Shown piece after piece: positions 45,201 to 56,078 of a DNA stretch of 64,000 nucleotides. The stretch is from Opitutales bacterium (lineage in GTDB: Bacteria; Verrucomicrobiota; Verrucomicrobiia; Opitutales; UBA9783), in assembly GCA_016286235.1 (NCBI GenBank), contig JAEESJ010000013.1, positions 1,950 through 65,949 on the forward strand. Reading direction: 5' to 3'. Under the pieces are notes generated by a model. That model saw only the letters and a program-made list of their open reading frames with translations. It did no database searches and was not told the DNA's origin. A program made the position numbers and the translations under genes. Numbering within the stretch: position 1 is the stretch's first letter; each line of letters begins with the position of its first letter.

Positions 45201-47054
45201 ATGGAGAAATTGACGAGTTCTTTGAAGCCTTTTGTTGTTTTACTGCTGAAAATCGGCGTTTATTTCTTTTGCCTGTCGGCGAGTTTGGTACTCGCCTATA
45301 ATTTAAAGTACGGTTTTCTTATTCCCGATACTGTCCAGCAAACGATGTGGCAAACGGTCGGTTGGCTGGTGAGTCTGAAAATTATCATCCTGGTACTCAT
45401 CGGTGAATTTAAGGGCATTTTTTCCTATTTCCGTCTGCCGGATTTATTCAAAATCATTGTCTGTTTTGTAGCCGTTTCGGCGGGGCTCGCCGTGTGTCAC
45501 TACTTCATTCGAGCGCCGTGGTTGCCGGGGCGGGATATTCTCATTGCCGATTTACTGTTTTCGATACTGTTTATTTTTTTCTTTCGGGCGAGTTTGCGCA
45601 TTTTAAATACCTCCTTTTTCTCCGCATCCTCTGCGGGCAACGTTGCGCACGAAAAAATGAAAGTCGCCGTCATCGGAACCGATGAAGCGGCATCGCAAAT
45701 TATCTCCAATCTGAAAACAAATCACCTGTGCAACATGCAACCGATCGCGGCTCTGGACGACAATCCAAAATATCACGGTCGAAAGCTACATGGCGTACCC
45801 GTTGTCGGAACGCCGGAACGATTGAGCGATTTGGCGGAACGGCAGGATCTTCAAGGGGTGATTTTCACGGGCAATTTGTCGCAAAAACGATTTTCCGAAT
45901 GTGTGCAGCTGGCGCAGTCGCTTCATTTGAAGGTTTTTAATGTGCCGTCGCTCGGCGAATTTTTAAACGGTCGCGCGTTTGCTTCCAAACTGCGTCCGTT
46001 GGAAATTGAAGATTTTTTGGCGCGCGATCCCATTCGCCTGAATACGGAGGAAAGCACGAAGCAAATCGAAGGAAAAGTCGTTTTCATAACGGGTGCCGGC
46101 GGCTCCATCGGAAGCGAATTATCCCTGCAGATTGCCAAAAAACATCCAAAAGCCCTGGTTCTTATCGACCATTGCGAATATAATTTATTTAAAATACAGC
46201 AAACTTTATTGGCACAAGGGTATGCCTGCGAACCCGTTTTGCTGAACATCACGCATCGTGAGTCGTTGCGCGCTTGTTTTGAGAAATTTAAGCCGCATTA
46301 CGTTTTTCATGCCGCCGCCTACAAACATGTACCTCTGTTGGAAAATCAGGCGTTGACCGCCGTGCAGAACAATGTTGGCGGAACCCTTCTGTTGGGACTT
46401 TATGCCACCGAATACGGCGTTGAAAAGTTCGTTCTGGTTTCGACGGATAAAGCGGTGCATCCCTCGAACACCATGGGCGCAACAAAACGCATTTGCGAAA
46501 TGCTCTGCATAGCGTTGCAACAGCGTTCGGGAAACATAACACAATTTATGGCGGTTCGCTTCGGAAACGTGCTCGGATCCGCGGGAAGCGTTTTACCGAC
46601 GTTTAAGGAACAGATTGCCCGCGGCGGTCCCGTCACGGTGACGCACCCGGATATGACGCGCTATTTCATGACCATTCCAGAAGCGGTGAGTTTAATTTTG
46701 GAAGCATTCACGTTTAAAGACGGCGACGGGAAGATTTATATCCTGGATATGGGGCAGCCGGTTAAAGTTTTGGATATTGCCAAACGCATGATTGAATTGA
46801 GCGGTGCAGCTGATGTTCCCATTGTTTTTACGGGCATCCGTCCCGGCGAAAAATTGCACGAAGAACTGTTCGGTGATATGACTTCTCTCGTTTCCACAAG
46901 CCATCAACTGGTGAATGTTTATAAAGAAGATACGTCGTATGTTTCAAAGTTGGAGTCTGTAGAAAGTTATTTGGATGCTATTCAGGAGTTGAAAACCGAA
47001 GAGGAGGCGTTGAGGTTTATTCGGGGGTTTATTAAGGAGTTCAAGAATTCTTGA
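45201..47054 (+). CDS. polysaccharide biosynthesis protein, CapD/PglF/WbpM-type NDP-sugar 4,6-dehydratase
   Basis: 617 aa. An N-terminal 4-TM region, then VFITGAGGSIGSEL (Rossmann fold), YKHVPL and RFGNVLGSAGSV motifs. Confidence 0.85.
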   Translation: MEKLTSSLKPFVVLLLKIGVYFFCLSASLVLAYNLKYGFLIPDTVQQTMWQTVGWLVSLKIIILVLIGEFKGIFSYFRLPDLFKIIVCFVAVSAGLAVCHYFIRAPWLPGRDILIADLLFSILFIFFFRASLRILNTSFFSASSAGNVAHEKMKVAVIGTDEAASQIISNLKTNHLCNMQPIAALDDNPKYHGRKLHGVPVVGTPERLSDLAERQDLQGVIFTGNLSQKRFSECVQLAQSLHLKVFNVPSLGEFLNGRAFASKLRPLEIEDFLARDPIRLNTEESTKQIEGKVVFITGAGGSIGSELSLQIAKKHPKALVLIDHCEYNLFKIQQTLLAQGYACEPVLLNITHRESLRACFEKFKPHYVFHAAAYKHVPLLENQALTAVQNNVGGTLLLGLYATEYGVEKFVLVSTDKAVHPSNTMGATKRICEMLCIALQQRSGNITQFMAVRFGNVLGSAGSVLPTFKEQIARGGPVTVTHPDMTRYFMTIPEAVSLILEAFTFKDGDGKIYILDMGQPVKVLDIAKRMIELSGAADVPIVFTGIRPGEKLHEELFGDMTSLVSTSHQLVNVYKEDTSYVSKLESVESYLDAIQELKTEEEALRFIRGFIKEFKNS

Positions 47055-49539: not shown

Positions 49540-50184
49540 GTGTTTGATTTCCTGCTGATTGAGAAAGCCGTGCAGACGTTCCCTGTCGCAAACCGCGACT
49601 GTCGGCTTATTCTCGGGATTGACCCCGCGCGCAAAAACGACAACATCGCCATGGTGTGGCGGCGCGGGCAGAACGTTGAAAAGATTGTCTGTTTCAAACC
49701 GCCCTGCGGGGACGACCGCAAAACCGCGGACGAGCTCATCTGGGAACGAATTGCACGGGAAATCCGCAACCTTTTCCCCGATGACATTTATGTCGATGTC
49801 GGCGGTATCGGCGGAAATGTGCCGTATATTCTGCGGTCACTCGGCATCAACACCTACATACATGAGGTTTATTTCAACGAAAGCCCCGAGGACAAAAGCG
49901 CGTATCACGACAAACGCGCCGAAATGTACGCCTACGCGAAAGCGTGGCTGAAACGCGGGGCGCATCTCCCGAACGATGAGGCATTTCTCAAAGAACTGCG
50001 GATGATTAAGTACAATCCGAACAGCCCGAAATTCCGCCTGGTGGAAAAATCGGAAATTAAAAAGAACCTGAAACATTCACCCGATATTGCCGACGCTTTC
50101 ACACTGACGTTCCCGTATGAAAGAGATTACGATGCTTATTCGCCGCCCATGCGGCTCGTGTGCGAGAACCGCATATTTGAGTGA
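49540..50184 (+). pseudogene. phage terminase large subunit, C-terminal nuclease domain only
   Basis: LILGIDPARKNDNIAMV..., IYVDVGGIGGNV..., YHDKRAEMYAYAKAWL... and KHSPDIADAFTLTF match the RNase-H-like terminase nuclease half. No ATPase (Walker A) half is present upstream. An in-frame stop lies at 49459-49461. Confidence 0.7.
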
Positions 50185-50220: not shown

Positions 50221-50511
50221 ATGGAAGCAACACGACTGAGCATCACCTTCAGACCGAAGATTTACGATTTCATCAAGAAGTTGGCGGATGACCGTCAGGT
50301 TTCTTTCAATCAGTGCGTTCAGGACTGCCTTGAAGAAAAGATGAACCGAACGGAAGAGGAGCGGACGGCTTTTACGAGGGAAGAGCTCGATCGCATGATA
50401 AAGGAAGGAGACAAAGAATTGGCAAGAGGCGAAACAAGATCGTTCAATTCCGTTGAAGAAATGTTGAAGGCACTCCATAAGGAATGCGAACAAAAAAATG
50501 CAACAAAATGA
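50221..50511 (+). CDS. ribbon-helix-helix antitoxin (family copy A2)
   Basis: 96 aa: MEATRLSITFRPKIYDFIKK...REELDRMIKEGDKELARGETRSFNSVEEMLKAL. It aligns over its full length with A1, A3 and A4. Its stop overlaps the downstream ATG (ATGA at 50508-50511). Confidence 0.75.
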   Translation: MEATRLSITFRPKIYDFIKKLADDRQVSFNQCVQDCLEEKMNRTEEERTAFTREELDRMIKEGDKELARGETRSFNSVEEMLKALHKECEQKNATK

Positions 50512-51032
50512 CGGATGTTGATTTAACACAGGCAGAAGCGGATCGTTTGATTGTCATGGATAAATATCCGTTAAAAGCAAATGAACATCGTTGCTACACT
50601 TTCCCGAATGCAGACGGGACGCGTTTGGAAATTCCGTTTATATCATCCGATAGAAAAGAAGATTTCGTACTAAATTTTTGCCGAAGAAAAATTGTTTTGG
50701 AAAAAAGAAATCATTTACTTCGGGCAAAAAAGACTATTCTTTTGGTGAGGCTTGATGTTGCCAGTCCTCCTCATTTAAATCCCGACGGAGAAACGATTGG
50801 AGGAACGCATATTCATATCTATCGGGAAGGGTTTGGGGATCGCTGTGCATATCCCGTTCGTCCTGAGGATAATTTTTCGGATTTATCCGATCCTTTTATG
50901 ACGTTGGAAGATTTTATGCGAGAGAGTTTTTGCTTTGCGTGTTATTTCTTCACGCATAGGCTGACAAAGATTGCGTTCCTTACACTCTTGATACAGCTTC
51001 CGTATGATTTTCTTTTGTTCCTCCGTTGGTGA
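50508..51032 (+). CDS. unknown protein with HLNPDG...THIHIYREGFGD motif (candidate toxin/effector; 3' end probably non-native)
   Basis: 174 aa from the ATG at 50508. The conserved-looking core is LLVRLDVASPPHLNPDGETIGGTHIHIYREGFGDRCAYPV. From about 50925 onward the frame reads antisense through the ERF C-terminus (F/L/C-rich), so the native C-terminus is probably lost. Confidence 0.55.
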   Translation: MTDVDLTQAEADRLIVMDKYPLKANEHRCYTFPNADGTRLEIPFISSDRKEDFVLNFCRRKIVLEKRNHLLRAKKTILLVRLDVASPPHLNPDGETIGGTHIHIYREGFGDRCAYPVRPEDNFSDLSDPFMTLEDFMRESFCFACYFFTHRLTKIAFLTLLIQLPYDFLLFLRW

Positions 51033-51525
51033 ATTATCAAACCCCTGCTGTTTGTATGTTGCGGTACTCGCAGGCGTTGCGGTATAGGAAGTATTTCCCG
51101 CACCCGCATCAATTTCATCGGGCTCGCAAATATCCAACACAAGCAGGTACAAATACCGCCGCGAATACGTTTGCATCTTTCCGAACATTTGAACTTCCGT
51201 GTCGGTCTTCGGGTTCAACGTCAGCGGAATACCCGTATTAAACACGACGGCATCCTTCGGATTGTCCATATCCACCACGCGGGCACACATGCATTGGTCT
51301 TTGCGGTCTTTTTTCAAATTGAATGCTCAATCCTTCGGCGGTGAGCACCTCCCGCGCCGCTGGGATAATATCGTCCAATGTGAAGTAATCAAACTTCAGG
51401 AAACCATTGTGCCCTGACTTTTTGATATTCTTTTTCGCAAACGCAATGCGCGCACGGTTTAAACGCTTGGAAACCGTTTCGACGGGCTTCGTTGTTTCGG
51501 GAATTTCCACGGTGTTGGTTGCCAT
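50883..51525 (-). pseudogene. ERF-family single-strand annealing recombinase, frameshifted
   Basis: The N-terminal part (MATNTVEIPETT...GHNGFLKFDYFTLDDIIPAAREVLTAEGLSIQFEK) and the C-terminal part (KDRKDQCMCARVV...MQTYSRRYLYLLVLDICEPDEIDA...) are in different frames. They join at an A6 run (complement of 51309-51314). A good RBS (AGGAGG) precedes the ATG at 51525. Confidence 0.7.
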
Positions 51526-51526
51526 T

Positions 51527-51944
51527 TTAATAAGCCTCCTTTCTTGCCTTAACCGCCACAAGGGTAGGGGACGTTTCCTCCGTCATCACATACGGCTCCA
51601 ATTCTTTAAATGCCGCTGTGCCGATTTCCTTTTCAATGCTTGCAAGGGTACGCAACTTTTTCGGTTGCCACGGATCGACGCCTTTTTGTTCCAAAATATC
51701 CGCAACTGCTTCTTCGTTGACGAAAAAACCGCCGCTCCGAACCGTTGCGTAATTTAAAGCCCGTGAATTGCGTCTTGTTGTGAATGGCTCTGCAGGTTGC
51801 TTCCGCTTTCGCACGTTCAAAAAACTCTTTAATCGTATCGCCCTTTAATAAAATGTCGTTCAGCATGGTATCGGATAAGGTCGATAAAACCCTTTCCAAT
51901 GTCACGTCCGATATCGCCAGTTGTTCCGTTGCGACCGCAAGCAT
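51527..51944 (-). pseudogene. DUF2800-type (PD-(D/E)XK, Cas4-like) phage nuclease, C-terminal fragment, frameshifted
   Basis: Two overlapping ORFs (51633..51944 and 51527..51820) together read like the last ~140 aa of DUF2800 proteins (..FTGFKL.., NEEAVADILEQKGVD, ASIEKEIGTAAFKELEPYV, SPTLVAV). The N-terminal nuclease part is absent. The family call is by recall. Confidence 0.55.
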
Positions 51945-52331: not shown

Positions 52332-52579
52332 ATTTAAATTATTTTAGTTTTCCTTTCATTTGTTTTGTTCCGTGCGTCGGGAGCGCGAGATGATTGTCCT
52401 TATTGCAAGAGTGAGACATCCTCTCAATCCCTTAAGCTTACAATCTTATTCTTGCGTATATATTTTTCCGTGTCAAGTGTTTTTTTAAAAAAAAGTTAAT
52501 TATTTTAACAAAAAATGCAACACATTGCCAGATTGAAATGTAAAGTGGAAAGCGGGGGAGAGGGGAGCAGGGGGAAAGG

Positions 52580-52918
52580 CTACTTCCTTTTAGGGAAGAA
52601 ATGATGCGCGGCGACAACAGGCAGACCGATAATGGCAAAGAATGTTGCTTTTAAGAGCGTACAGACAATCGTATCCGAAAGATAAAAGCCGTTACGGTAT
52701 TTCCCGACGAAGTACAAAATCAACCAAATCACTGCCGACCATGCCCATATCAAACGTATAATAATGCGAAAAAACTCTTTTTTTAACTTTGTATCCTGAT
52801 CGTAACGTTCGGCTTTCAGTTTTAAAAACCAATCTTGATTTTTCGAAATTTCATCCGCGGTTTCCCTGGGAAAGGATGACGTGTTTTCCAAATCGTCGAA
52901 AAAACGGCTTTCACGCAT
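52580..52918 (-). CDS. 2-TM membrane protein downstream of ImmA
   Basis: 112 aa from the ATG at 52918, overlapping the ImmA stop by 8 nt. A soluble N-terminal half is followed by two hydrophobic helices (IIIRLIWAWSAVIWLILYFV and LLKATFFAIIGLPVVAAHHFF). Confidence 0.55.
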   Translation of the reverse strand: MRESRFFDDLENTSSFPRETADEISKNQDWFLKLKAERYDQDTKLKKEFFRIIIRLIWAWSAVIWLILYFVGKYRNGFYLSDTIVCTLLKATFFAIIGLPVVAAHHFFPKRK

Positions 52919-53495
52919 ACCCAAGCGAATTGCGTCTTGCACTGAATGCGGCAAATGACACTCCCAACACTTTTGCCAATTTTTCCTCACCGGCAAACGC
53001 ATAATCCGAAAGAAGCATTTTCATTAAAAACTTTGGCATCAACAAGTTTGCCGCAAAACAGTTTGCTTCTTTTTCCCATGCCTCCTTATGGGGGCTGTTG
53101 TAAGAACTGCGAAACACTAACTGTCCATAGTCGTCTTCGTTTTTTGTGTGTCCCATAAACCAATGCCCCAATTCATGCGCGATTGTGAAACGCCTGCGTG
53201 TGTACGGATCGGCTTTATTCACACAAATAATTTTTGCTCTTGGGTTGATGTATCCCGAAATATACAAGCGGTCGGTTTTCTCTTTTGGCAAAAGCGAAAA
53301 ATCTTCCTTATAAACAGGCAAACCTTCTTCTTCGGCTATCGTAACAACATCAACAGGAGGTTCTTCAACGTGGTACTTTTCCAACAAATCCAACGCCAGT
53401 CGTTCGGCTTTATTGTAGTCAGGCTGTTGTACCGTGAATTCCGTTTCACTTGATTTCCGGTTCGAAAATACATCACCAATATGCACGGGTTCCAT
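52911..53495 (-). CDS. ImmA/IrrE-family zinc metallopeptidase
   Basis: 194 aa. HEXXH in FTIAHELGHWFMGH and a downstream EKEANCFAANLLMP, the characteristic COG2856/DUF955 pattern. Confidence 0.8.
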   Translation of the reverse strand: MEPVHIGDVFSNRKSSETEFTVQQPDYNKAERLALDLLEKYHVEEPPVDVVTIAEEEGLPVYKEDFSLLPKEKTDRLYISGYINPRAKIICVNKADPYTRRRFTIAHELGHWFMGHTKNEDDYGQLVFRSSYNSPHKEAWEKEANCFAANLLMPKFLMKMLLSDYAFAGEEKLAKVLGVSFAAFSARRNSLGYA

Positions 53496-53498
53496 AAT

Positions 53499-53759
53499 TC
53501 ATCCTTTCTTATTCGTAGTGGCTCCAACAACGAGCAAATTCAATCGTATTTCCGATGACAACAAGACCAAACGATGCTGTCCGTTGATGCGGCGCGAATA
53601 CATATGCTCATAGCCTTTTAATTTCTCGTACGGCGGTGGATTTTGGAACGGGTTTCGAATAACCAATTCCATTAACTTTTGAATGGTACACCCCAGCGAT
53701 GATTTCTCCGCCTTCTTCCAATCCTTCACGAATTGATGTGAGTATTTAACGGCAATCAT
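53499..53759 (-). pseudogene. yoeB: YoeB/Txe-family toxin, frameshifted (copy 2)
   Basis: In frame up to ..YSRRINGQHRLV. The conserved end VVIGNTIEFARCWSHYE* is in another frame, with its stop at 53509-53511. One nucleotide is missing in the expected Tyr codon of RLVY (around 53563-53564). Its start overlaps the A3 stop (ATGA). Confidence 0.75.
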
Positions 53760-54025
53760 TCGGTTTCTTCGGCAAGCGCGGCAAACATCTCTTCAGCACT
53801 CTTGAAGGATTTTCCTCTTCCGCTTCGTATATCCTCTTCCGCCTCTCGAATACTCTCATCCAGCTCTTCCTTTGAGTACGGCGTCGGATTTTCACAGGTA
53901 TCGACAGCTTCCTCAAGGTACGCTTCAACGCACTTATTGATTTGAGCAATCCCGCGACGTTCCGCTTCGGAGGAGAAAAATGCCTGCAATTTCGGCGTGA
54001 GGTTGATTTGAAGTTCCATTCGCAT
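53756..54025 (-). CDS. ribbon-helix-helix antitoxin (family copy A3)
   Basis: MRMELQINLTPKLQAFF...KEELDESIREAEEDIRSGRGKSFKSAEEMFAAL. The likely functional start is the second ATG at 54019 (MELQINL), given the promoter geometry. Confidence 0.75.
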   Translation of the reverse strand: MRMELQINLTPKLQAFFSSEAERRGIAQINKCVEAYLEEAVDTCENPTPYSKEELDESIREAEEDIRSGRGKSFKSAEEMFAALAEETE

Positions 54026-54026
54026 C

Positions 54027-54056
54027 TATTCTGCAACACATTCCCGCACCTGTCAA
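54027..54056 (-). promoter_or_regulatory. putative promoter of the A3 operon (leaderless geometry)
   Basis: On the minus strand: TTGACA (complement of 54051-54056), an 18-nt spacer, then AGAATA (complement of 54027-54032). The ATG at 54019 begins about 7-8 nt after the -10 element. Confidence 0.4.
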
Positions 54057-54079
54057 TGAACTGCCTCTAAAACAAAAAA

Positions 54080-54099
54080 GGGAAGTGTTGACACTTCCC
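54080..54099. promoter_or_regulatory. perfect 8-bp inverted repeat around a TTGACA (candidate operator)
   Basis: GGGAAGTG-TTGA-CACTTCCC, read directly. It lies in the 106-bp divergent region between the A3 operon and the wHTH gene. Confidence 0.45.
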
Positions 54100-54131
54100 C
54101 CAAAGTTTTACTCTTTGACAAAGACACCCCT

Positions 54132-54686
54132 ATGGTCACGCTATCATCCGAGACAACGAAGTCAAGCCCAAAAGGCAAGACAATTTACATGAGAGACATT
54201 CCGATTAACCTGTTCAAAGGCAGGCATCCGAGCACGTTCATCAAGTTCGTGAATTTAATCAACCGTTTAGACCGCGACGGCAAGGGCTGTTACGCCAAAG
54301 ACGAATGGTTTGCAAGGAAGTTGGAGGTATGCGCGAACACCATCACAAATTATTTCGCATGTGCAAAAGCTCTCGGTTATTGTTCGGTCATCAACAGCGA
54401 CAAACGCAATCGCCTTGTTATCGGTTACGACAGTATCAAAAAACGTATGCAACAGGAGCAGGAAAGCTCACAACAAACCGACGAAACAAAATCTTCGGCA
54501 ACCTCGACCGACAACGGAAAAGGTTGGGGATTTAATCCACAAGCCGTTGGGGGTCGTAACACTATAGAGAATGATCCAAAAAATTTAAATAAATCAGAAG
54601 AAAGAGAAAAAGAGAAAGAAGAGGTTGCTGGTATTCGCACAATGGATATTATGTCTAATCTTTATATTAAGAGAATCTTGGACTGA
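54132..54686 (+). CDS. winged-helix/HTH DNA-binding protein (phage/plasmid regulator or replication-initiator-like)
   Basis: 184 aa (an alternative ATG lies at 54189). The segment CYAKDEWFARKLEVCANTITNYFACAKALGY reads as an HTH. The C-terminus is low-complexity and acidic/polar. Confidence 0.5.
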   Translation: MVTLSSETTKSSPKGKTIYMRDIPINLFKGRHPSTFIKFVNLINRLDRDGKGCYAKDEWFARKLEVCANTITNYFACAKALGYCSVINSDKRNRLVIGYDSIKKRMQQEQESSQQTDETKSSATSTDNGKGWGFNPQAVGGRNTIENDPKNLNKSEEREKEKEEVAGIRTMDIMSNLYIKRILD

Positions 54687-54803: not shown

Positions 54804-56078
54804 TTGCACCTCAAAACTTACCTTTTCATTGCCATTTATCGGTTACTGTTCCTACCGATCTTGCTGTGTGTATTGCCGTATTACTTACTGCGTATGCGGA
54901 AACGCGGTGGGTACAGAAAACACTTTTTTAATCGTTTCGGTTGGCTGCCGAAACCTCAACAACCGTCTCCCGTGTGGATACAGGCGGTTAGCGTCGGGGA
55001 AATCGAATCATTGCGACCGCTTTTGGTTACATTGAAACAACGAAACATTCCCGTTTATTTAACGACTACAACTTCAACGGCGTTTCGGATTGTTGAAAAA
55101 AAATATGCTTCCCTGGTCGATACATTCGGTTATTTTTCGCTCGATTTTTGGGTATTTTCCGCTCTCGCTTGGCGGCGCATTCGTCCGAAAGCCGTTCTTT
55201 TGACGGAATCCGAACTGTGGCCGGAGCATCTTTTTCAGGCTAAAAAACACTCTGTTCCCGTTTATCTCATCAATGGTCGTGTTTCCGACAGAACGTTTTC
55301 GCGTTATCAACGCTTTTTGCCAATCGCACGCATACTGTTCGGTTTTCTTACAAAGATCTTTGCCGCAAGTCATGCCGATGCGGAGCGCTTCCGGGCGTTA
55401 TGTCCGAAGGATATTCCGATTATCCAGGCGGGAAATTTAAAAATCGATGCCGCTGTCAAATCTGGCGCGAGTGTTTCCGTTATTTCGCGAAAAGAATTAG
55501 GTGCTCAATGGCACAACGCAACTGTTTTACTGGGAACTTCCACCTGGTCGGGCGAAGAAAAAATGTTGGTTGAATTCTTTTTAAAAGCACGAAAAGAATT
55601 TCCGCAGTTGAGGCTTATTTTGGTTCCGCGCCATGTCGAACGCACACACGAAGTTAAAACCTTACTGCAAACCTACCCTGTTACGTTTTGCCTGCGAACA
55701 CAACCGACTCAAAATGTCGATATTTATGTCGTCAATACCACGGGTGAATTGCGTTCCTTCCTCCCGACGGCTGATTTGGTTTTTATCGGCAAAAGCTTTT
55801 CGCCGCATTACGGCGGGCAAACCCCCATCGAAGCGGCAGTTTTCGGGAAACCAATGGTGTATGGTTCTCATATGGAAAATTTCGTCGATATTTGTGCCGA
55901 ATTCGAACACCTGCACGCGGCGGTTCGTTGTGCCGATGTCGAACATTTGGAACAACAATTGTTATTTTGGTTAAAGCATCCGGAAAATGCCGTTTCCTGC
56001 GGTCAGGCGGCTCGGCAATGGATTCACGCTCATCAGGGAGCCGTGAAAGCCGTTATGGATGATTTGTTCCCTCAATAA
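54804..56078 (+). CDS. waaA: 3-deoxy-D-manno-octulosonic acid transferase
   Basis: 424 aa with a TTG start. An N-terminal TM, then VWIQAVSVGEIESLRPL (the WaaA signature) and a GT-B C-terminal half. Confidence 0.88.
   Translation: MHLKTYLFIAIYRLLFLPILLCVLPYYLLRMRKRGGYRKHFFNRFGWLPKPQQPSPVWIQAVSVGEIESLRPLLVTLKQRNIPVYLTTTTSTAFRIVEKKYASLVDTFGYFSLDFWVFSALAWRRIRPKAVLLTESELWPEHLFQAKKHSVPVYLINGRVSDRTFSRYQRFLPIARILFGFLTKIFAASHADAERFRALCPKDIPIIQAGNLKIDAAVKSGASVSVISRKELGAQWHNATVLLGTSTWSGEEKMLVEFFLKARKEFPQLRLILVPRHVERTHEVKTLLQTYPVTFCLRTQPTQNVDIYVVNTTGELRSFLPTADLVFIGKSFSPHYGGQTPIEAAVFGKPMVYGSHMENFVDICAEFEHLHAAVRCADVEHLEQQLLFWLKHPENAVSCGQAARQWIHAHQGAVKAVMDDLFPQ

Follow-up and report, generated by a model that had tools for sequence, protein, structure and literature searches.

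A short ImmA peptidase and a small membrane protein behind a decayed RHH–YoeB cassette: a probable diverged relative of the RosmerTA D25:D5 toxin–antitoxin pair in a prophage remnant

A compact run of toxin–antitoxin (TA)-like genes in a 64,000-nucleotide (nt) stretch of contig JAEESJ010000013.1 (Opitutales bacterium, assembly GCA_016286235.1; this whole stretch is hereafter the window) raises the question of how many systems it encodes and which of its genes belong together. Four open reading frames (ORFs), all on the minus strand and overlapping or abutting, occupy 54025..52580; they encode a ribbon-helix-helix (RHH)-like protein termed A3, a YoeB-like protein, an ImmA peptidase and a small protein with two transmembrane (TM) helices, here called 2TM. 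These gene calls, their co-orientation and their overlaps or abutments, first proposed in a reading of the sequence without database searches, were borne out by the ORF coordinates and by three-frame translation. The same sequence-only reading took the four genes for a single protease-gated system of undescribed arrangement. The comparisons reported here suggest a different answer, namely that the locus probably holds two independent TA modules arranged head to tail in a prophage remnant, a decayed RHH–YoeB cassette and a pair of the RosmerTA type (D25:D5).

The pair consists of ImmA and 2TM. The ImmA gene (53495..52911, minus strand) encodes a putative RmrA-like antitoxin, a short ImmA/IrrE M78 metallopeptidase of 194 amino acids (aa) that carries the motif HELGH and matches PF06114 with E 3.6e-20. 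Its HEXXH residues are H107, E108 and H111, accompanied by E141/E143, and the catalytic columns are invariant in 25 homologs. The protein is a peptidase-plus-helical core only, with no N-terminal helix-turn-helix (HTH) domain in a Pfam scan and no C-terminal GAF-like domain. Its best PADLOC model is capP (positions 3-149 of 242), and the PADLOC RmrA models cover only its peptidase core (model positions ~125-291). The AlphaFold2 (AF2) model, with a predicted local distance difference test (pLDDT) score of 88, has its best PDB matches in IrrE, PprI, CapP and an M. tuberculosis XRE-COG2856 regulator. The 2TM gene (52918..52580, minus strand; 112 aa) overlaps the ImmA gene by 8 nt (ATGCGTGA), and through this overlap it is translationally coupled to ImmA. 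Hydrophobic segments span residues ~49-73 and 79-107 of the product, in which a charged, cytosolic helix at the N-terminus precedes two TM helices in the C-terminal part and a conserved end, ...LSD...GLP...HFFPK; in the AF2 model (pLDDT 67) a long helix (21-73) leads into the first TM helix and is followed by a short loop and a helix at 82-107. No Pfam, PADLOC or NCBIfam model matches 2TM. Two longer readings, a 140-aa version of 2TM from 53002, which the homologs P0002 and P0003 do not support, and a 124-aa call for P0001, were rejected since orthologs begin at the 112-aa position.

The function of such a pair is suggested by the work of Ernits et al. (2023), in which the ImmA protease domain (node D25) was described as a hub antitoxin of the TA network, the Rosmer zone (PMC10440598). 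A validated pair from Gordonia phage Kita combines RmrA_D25 (YP_009301393), whose sole annotation is Peptidase_M78, with RmrT_D5 (YP_009301394), whose sole annotation is transmembrane. RmrT_D5 causes an immediate growth stop and forms pores, leaving the membrane depolarised and permeable, and the control toxin PanT_D11 is membrane-depolarising as well; together, RmrA_D25 and RmrT_D5 protected E. coli against Bas54 and Bas59 (PMC10440598). In the Kita genome (KU963257.1) the two genes are gp32 (178 aa) and gp33 (119 aa), which overlap by 4 nt. BLASTP aligns gp32 with the window ImmA across 151 residues at 35% identity (E 6e-14). A hidden Markov model (HMM) of the broadened 2TM family gives gp33 a score of 48 bits (E 4.7e-11, Z = 1e6), and an hhalign comparison of gp33 with a 14-sequence profile built without Kita gives a probability of 91% and E 9e-7 over 80 columns, placing 2TM in a putative RmrT_D5 toxin family.

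The likeness extends to layout: in both pairs a standalone, HTH-less M78 protein of ~180 aa is encoded first, followed by an overlapping gene of ~115 aa whose product is soluble at its N-terminus and has TM helices towards its C-terminus. Both pairs lie on phage or prophage DNA, and both proteins are detectably homologous. Searches of Pfam and PADLOC also turn out alike for Kita gp32 and gp33 and for the window proteins, with the CapP and RmrA cores matching the peptidase and nothing matching the toxin. The pairs differ in that the proteins are 35% (ImmA) and ~20% (toxin) identical and the window pair is known here from sequence alone; in host, a Gram-negative bacterium with kdtA here whereas an actinobacterium there; and in the fusion of the window pair behind an RHH–yoeB cassette whose promoter it apparently shares. 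The ImmA–2TM pair is most probably a diverged relative of the published RosmerTA D25:D5 pair. The arrangement had been thought undescribed, a view that we give up, since the RosmerTA D25:D5 pair of Ernits et al. (2023) has just this make-up, an HTH-less M78 peptidase followed by a small TM toxin (PMC10440598); for this locus the claim of novelty is removed, and what is left is a diverged D25:D5 pair beside an ordinary decaying YoeB cassette. The suggestion that 2TM is a membrane effector fared better, in that homology to the pore-forming RmrT_D5 of Kita makes it most likely a membrane-acting effector or toxin.

Members of the 2TM family are numerous. The family's apparent orphan status in a word-index search, which gave 3 matches, was discarded as a sensitivity artefact, because 1826 cluster representatives (50% identity) were recovered at E<=1e-3 when a 10-sequence profile was run exhaustively with HMMER. 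Members are mostly 100-140 aa long, occur in many phyla and in phages, and share the motif ...LSD.V..TL..TT...V.GL..I...(H/Y)(F/L)FP. Narrower family-alignment scans of genome, metagenome and viral contigs yielded no confirmed 2TM relative; in tblastn searches of phages two family members had no match and a third found phage c-st; and a Foldseek comparison of the 2TM model with viral structures gave nothing significant. A SLATT/KwaA-like relationship was dropped, its only basis being PADLOC matches of E ~0.01 for two relatives. The RmrT_D5-like family is without a Pfam, NCBIfam or PADLOC model, so that such pairs go unannotated.

The gene for one distant family member, P0147 (135 aa), follows a SocA_Panacea (DUF4065) gene at a distance of 1 nt (L103 775-1654), and the 2TM toxin family thus has partners of at least two unrelated kinds among antitoxins. 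Partner swapping is typical of TA toxins, and Panacea is another hyperpromiscuous antitoxin. The toxin role of the family is supported because P0147 pairs with a Panacea antitoxin, and the occurrence of one toxin family with either partner fits the partner-swapping picture of TA evolution. The PanAT systems, which join Panacea/DUF4065 to the depolarising PanT, are thereby linked to the family through the SocA_Panacea partner of P0147, whereas the antitoxin in the window is ImmA.

Whether ImmA and 2TM form a unit of their own can be judged from relatives, which apparently come from host-associated metagenomes, going by sample names. In a neighbourhood survey an M78 peptidase gene was found directly upstream of every close 2TM homolog with upstream DNA (L001-L011 and L013-L018), so the proposed linkage is conserved; the junctions range from a 14-nt gap (L014) through 4-nt and 11-nt overlaps. 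The arrangement in L001 is identical to that of the window. In L002 and L003, ImmA (178 aa) and 2TM (106 aa), overlapping by 4 nt, lie directly downstream of the gene that diverges from the locus in the window, a replication-initiator fragment; L002 has an RHH plus RelE-like cassette downstream of 2TM and none upstream of ImmA, and L004 an RHH plus YoeB cassette downstream of 2TM. The order in L006-L008 and L009-L010 is kdtA, divergent gene, ImmA, 2TM, without RHH or YoeB, and the synteny of L009 with the window extends to capD and S1. L011 and L016-L018 read metK–RHH–ImmA–2TM without YoeB, and L012 reads metK–RHH–ImmA. Finally, L014 and L015 have ImmA (167 aa) followed by 2TM, in L014 probably without upstream RHH or YoeB. 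The replication-initiator fragment is a conserved neighbour of the pair in L002, L006 and L009, with DNA homology over 54153-54331.

The pair is therefore a unit separate from RHH and YoeB, because in its relatives these are present, absent, downstream or partly deleted. The idea of a single four-gene system is contradicted by ImmA–2TM pairs without upstream RHH or YoeB in L002, L003, L006-L010 and probably L014, by the TA cassettes that stand downstream in L002 and L004, and by the presence of RHH with yoeB deleted in L011 and L012. The pair is kept in unrelated contexts, by kdtA, by metK, in phages and in many phyla; among GTDB representative genomes the closest ImmA, from Melainabacteria, is 40% identical. 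The ratio of nonsynonymous to synonymous substitution rates (dN/dS) is 0.07-0.34 for ImmA, and for 2TM it is 0.20 against L005 (dS 0.68) and 0.24-0.36 in other unsaturated pairs, values that indicate purifying selection on both genes. ImmA–2TM is accordingly a self-contained, widely conserved module of which RHH and YoeB appear to be no part. What can be stated plainly is that the pair is homologous to the Kita pair, conserved, tightly coupled, under purifying selection and independent of RHH and YoeB.

A broader survey of short-ImmA genes covered 80 genome loci (L019-L098) from GTDB representative genomes of many phyla, of which 74 were analysed; TM segments were predicted with a simple hydropathy window, and the counts are approximate. 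At 41 of the 74 loci the ImmA gene is followed by a tightly coupled ORF for which one or more TM segments are predicted, and 20 of these 41 ORFs have a match (E<0.01) to the broadened HMM of the 2TM family; TM proteins make up 22% of the long ORFs of the surveyed loci as background. At 20 of the 74 loci there was instead an upstream ORF of ~100-140 aa, usually overlapping by 1-8 nt, and all 20 encode HTH_3 proteins. Not one locus had both an upstream XRE gene and a downstream TM gene, and 13 had neither (Fisher's exact p = 1e-9). Short ImmA proteins thus split into an XRE-partnered and a membrane-toxin-partnered class with no overlap. About half of the TM partners have no RmrT_D5-like HMM match, e.g., an alphaproteobacterial group ending ...AYIFGKG, and such partners may represent further toxin families. 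The same ImmA–TM architecture occurs in Clostridium phage c-st, in mycobacteriophage Che9c (gp32-gp33) and in a Helicobacter prophage; PHROGs contains related families, all of unknown function. A P2-like phage, OU784750.1 (L099 2489-3665), carries a short ImmA gene (161 aa) near its right genome end, with a 159-aa protein that has N- and C-terminal TM segments encoded 211 nt downstream and no match to the family HMM.

In keeping with this division, an XRE-type (HTH_3) gene was found nowhere among the flanking ORFs scanned in the window, as the sequence-only reading had observed. The M78 peptidase fold is common to the window ImmA and to ImmR/ImmA (ICEBs1), DdrO/IrrE and CapH/CapP, but these systems have an XRE partner, whereas the window ImmA has a membrane-protein partner gene. 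CapP carries in addition a C-terminal GAF-like sensor domain, which the window ImmA lacks, and occurs with CapH and a cyclic-oligonucleotide-based antiphage signaling system (CBASS) operon; no CapH-like HTH partner was seen among the flanking ORFs scanned, and no search aimed at a CBASS operon was made. The canonical RosmerTA system (Millman et al., 2022; PADLOC RmrA) is alike in joining an ImmA/Zn-peptidase antitoxin to a toxin of otherwise unknown family in abortive TA defence. It differs in that canonical RmrA, at ~360-400 aa, carries an XRE HTH at its N-terminus and additional sequence at its C-terminus, compared with 194 aa and no HTH for the window ImmA, and the PADLOC RmrT models give no match to the window 2TM.

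The first module has a different history. When the window was compared with L002 and L006 by BLASTN, homology ended at 54153 and picked up again at 53430. The ~720-bp block in between, which takes in the promoter, RHH and YoeB as well as the 5' end of ImmA (its first 21 codons), is therefore an insertion or replacement. RHH–YoeB would thus be an independent, decaying type II cassette, apparently inserted with its own promoter. Its antitoxin gene A3 (54025..53756, minus strand) encodes a putative RHH-type protein of 89 aa, or of 87 aa from the second ATG at 54019, which homologs suggest as the likely true start. A3 is assigned by RHH profile match: no Pfam match above threshold and no NCBIfam or PADLOC family was found for it, and a profile of 8 paralogs and orthologs has its best PDB match, a weak one (E 0.002), in the RHH regulator AvtR (4hv0). 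The yoeB pseudogene (53759..53499, minus strand; 86 aa as read) overlaps A3 by 4 nt (ATGA) and still scores 53.2 bits with TIGR02116 (cutoff 51.8) and 31.5 with PF06769 (cutoff 27; E 1.8e-7). A 1-nt frameshift near 53562-53565 breaks its frame before the C-terminal catalytic His-Tyr. As read, the frame ends in ...RINGQHRLV, and the canonical C-terminus VVIGNTIEFARCWSHYE (...CWSHYE) runs on in another frame, which is consistent with the putative loss of one base in a Tyr codon at that place. The repaired gene would stop at the TAA at 53511..53509, so that the gap between yoeB and ImmA is 3 nt as read and 13 nt once the frame is repaired. The frameshift, already noticed in the sequence-only reading, is real in the sequence; the identical frameshift is present in the independent short contig L001.

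In L011, L012 and L018 the spacer between RHH and ImmA measures 51 nt and can be aligned with both ends of yoeB, namely its first ~17 nt and a few nt at its close. It is a yoeB remnant, and the juxtaposition of RHH and ImmA in L011 and L012 therefore arose by deletion; yoeB was deleted in the L011/L012/L018 lineage, whereas it is frameshifted in the window. The RHH family itself behaves as a generic cassette antitoxin, because no fewer than five kinds of gene are its downstream partners in this lineage, encoding YoeB, a RelE-like protein, DUF6978, DUF1828/1829 and ImmA. Compared with the YefM/Axe–YoeB/Txe type II systems, the cassette is alike in its YoeB-family toxin (TIGR02116) and overlapping upstream putative antitoxin gene, and differs in that the antitoxin is probably of the RHH type here and of the Phd/YefM type there, and in that the toxin gene here is a pseudogene. 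The RHH proteins are mosaic (window 53756-54025; L002 1228-1500; L011 446-733; L012 953-1228): the C-terminal half (...YSKEELD.SIREAE.DI..G..K.F.SAEEMFAAL) is 80-90% conserved among cassettes, and the N-terminal DNA-binding half is swapped between them.

One promoter-like element had been proposed to drive the four genes. A sequence TTGACA-17-CAGAAT with 10/12 sigma-70 matches is indeed present directly 5' of A3 (54056..54028, minus strand), but statistically it is undistinguished, since 5 sigma-70-like matches were found in the region vs 3.5 expected and such sites are not rarer than chance. The site falls within the segment missing from L002 and L006, which assigns it to the TA cassette. Its position would imply a near-leaderless transcript with a start at ~54019-54022. 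No internal terminator was found in the four-gene block. Directly 5' of the promoter-like site, in the interval that separates the RHH promoter from the divergent replication gene, lies a GC-rich inverted repeat with a T-run (GGGGGAAGTGTCAACACTTCCC-TTTTTT; 54078..54101, minus strand), terminator-like in appearance, which forms a near-perfect palindrome, GGGAAGTGT-CA-ACACTTCCC; a similar hairpin stands at the equivalent place in L002. The palindrome could be a candidate terminator or operator.

Taken together, a working model for the locus may be drawn. In the first module (54025..53499), RHH–YoeB with its own promoter would have lost its toxin through the frameshift, and the intact RHH antitoxin probably still autoregulates the promoter, which would now also drive the downstream genes. 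In the second (53495..52580), the 112-aa toxin is predicted to insert into the inner membrane via its two C-terminal helices, to oligomerise, to form pores and to depolarise the cell, a prediction drawn from its homology to Kita RmrT_D5, and the co-translated, HTH-less ImmA metallopeptidase would act as its antitoxin. Neutralisation may take place by proteolysis or binding of the cytosolic N-terminal region of the toxin, a route that we favour because the TM and XRE partners of short ImmA proteins are mutually exclusive, which suggests that the charged cytosolic N-terminus of the toxin takes the place of the repressor as partner or substrate of the protease. A phage-derived cue would then be expected to relieve neutralisation and lead to abortive infection or growth arrest.

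Several observations count against two independent modules of this kind. The Kita antitoxin neutralises its toxin only partly, and AlphaFold predicted no complex between them (PMC10440598). The relation of 2TM to Kita gp33 is remote (~18-23% identity), and the strong score needs the broadened profile, the narrow 10-sequence HMM reaching only E 0.0017; the PADLOC Rosmer models, too, miss the window toxin and cover only the ImmA peptidase core. Expression, toxicity, neutralisation and defence are all attributed to this locus by homology. Furthermore, the ImmA–2TM module itself decays in some lineages: 2TM has an in-frame deletion of the loop and second TM helix in L009 (5536-5781) and L010, with 81 aa left, and no 2TM gene was called in L012. 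In L009 and L010 the ImmA gene upstream of the damaged 2TM gene is still intact, and the damage is a case of toxin-first decay, like that of yoeB in the window. The RHH gene, for its part, has stayed intact in three lineages whose yoeB was frameshifted or deleted, and there it is still under purifying selection (dN/dS 0.15-0.30; omega 0.30 for L011 vs L012, i.e., after yoeB loss); RHH may have acquired a role in the ImmA–2TM operon.

This persistence of selection on RHH would also be expected if the locus were an integrated protease-gated system, as originally proposed, in which ImmA cleaves RHH, 2TM is de-repressed or released, and YoeB is a dispensable passenger. ImmA-type proteases cleave the DNA-binding repressors ImmR, DdrO and CapH, the four genes are co-oriented and overlapping without an internal terminator, and RHH–ImmA–2TM occurs without YoeB in L011 and L016-L018, as does RHH–ImmA in L012. 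Against this, most relatives, and all distant ones, have ImmA–2TM without RHH; the RHH protein is the generic antitoxin of cassettes with at least five different downstream partners; and the RHH–ImmA spacer of L011 and L012 marks a juxtaposition by deletion. To our knowledge, moreover, the substrates of ImmA are XRE-type proteins, and none is RHH. There is no indication that ImmA processes the RHH protein, and we consider an integrated system unlikely. We are just as doubtful of a variant in which the orphaned RHH was captured as a DNA-binding component, giving an RHH–RmrA–RmrT unit with RHH autoregulating and ImmA acting on RHH also, or instead of on the toxin.

More improbable is an immunity or lysogeny remnant, with ImmA as an anti-repressor whose repressor was lost and 2TM as a superinfection-exclusion or lysogenic-conversion protein and no toxin. 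Such an origin would suit the position of the pair, which meets a replication-initiator gene at a divergent junction and lies upstream of Erf and exonuclease genes, the moron or immunity-type positions of homologous or analogous pairs in Kita, Che9c and c-st, and the existence of XRE-partnered short ImmA proteins as the other large class. The mutual exclusion of XRE and TM partners nevertheless implies that a TM-linked ImmA is not merely missing an annotated repressor; one member of the 2TM family has a Panacea antitoxin partner; and the Kita homolog of 2TM is toxic and pore-forming when expressed alone (PMC10440598). That all four ORFs are inactive remnants of a dying element is very improbable, for despite the frameshift in yoeB, the fragmented state of the Erf, exonuclease, terminase and replication genes nearby and the damage to 2TM in L009 and L010, both ImmA and 2TM are full length in the window, with intact catalytic residues, an intact conserved C-terminal motif and dN/dS of ~0.2.

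The surroundings of the two modules are those of a decayed prophage remnant, lying between capD (45201-47054) and kdtA (54804-56078). Its debris includes a terminase large-subunit fragment (49540-50184), an Erf-like annealing gene split into two ORFs (50883-51561) and an exonuclease/DUF2800 gene split into overlapping ORFs (51527-51944). The divergent gene is an N-terminal replication-initiator fragment of 184 aa on the plus strand (54132..54686), matched by phrog_2880 (E 1.6e-6) and phrog_270 (E 1.6e-5). An Rfam scan of the window returned only tRNAs, and a repeat search around the island found nothing delimiting the element. At 50221-51032 (plus strand) another RHH antitoxin-like gene (96 aa) and a DUF6978 gene overlap; the DUF6978 protein has its best PADLOC match in PDC-M24A (E 1e-37), and its ORF ends in an odd hydrophobic C-terminal tail that suggests a frameshift or fusion. 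In L006 a DUF1828/DUF1829 protein takes the place of DUF6978 as the partner of this second RHH gene. A direct repeat of 24 nt (83% identity) links 52510-52533, just past the 2TM stop codon, with 50493-50516, at the RHH/DUF6978 junction, and may be the scar of a cassette that formerly stood downstream of 2TM, as one does in L006 and L012.

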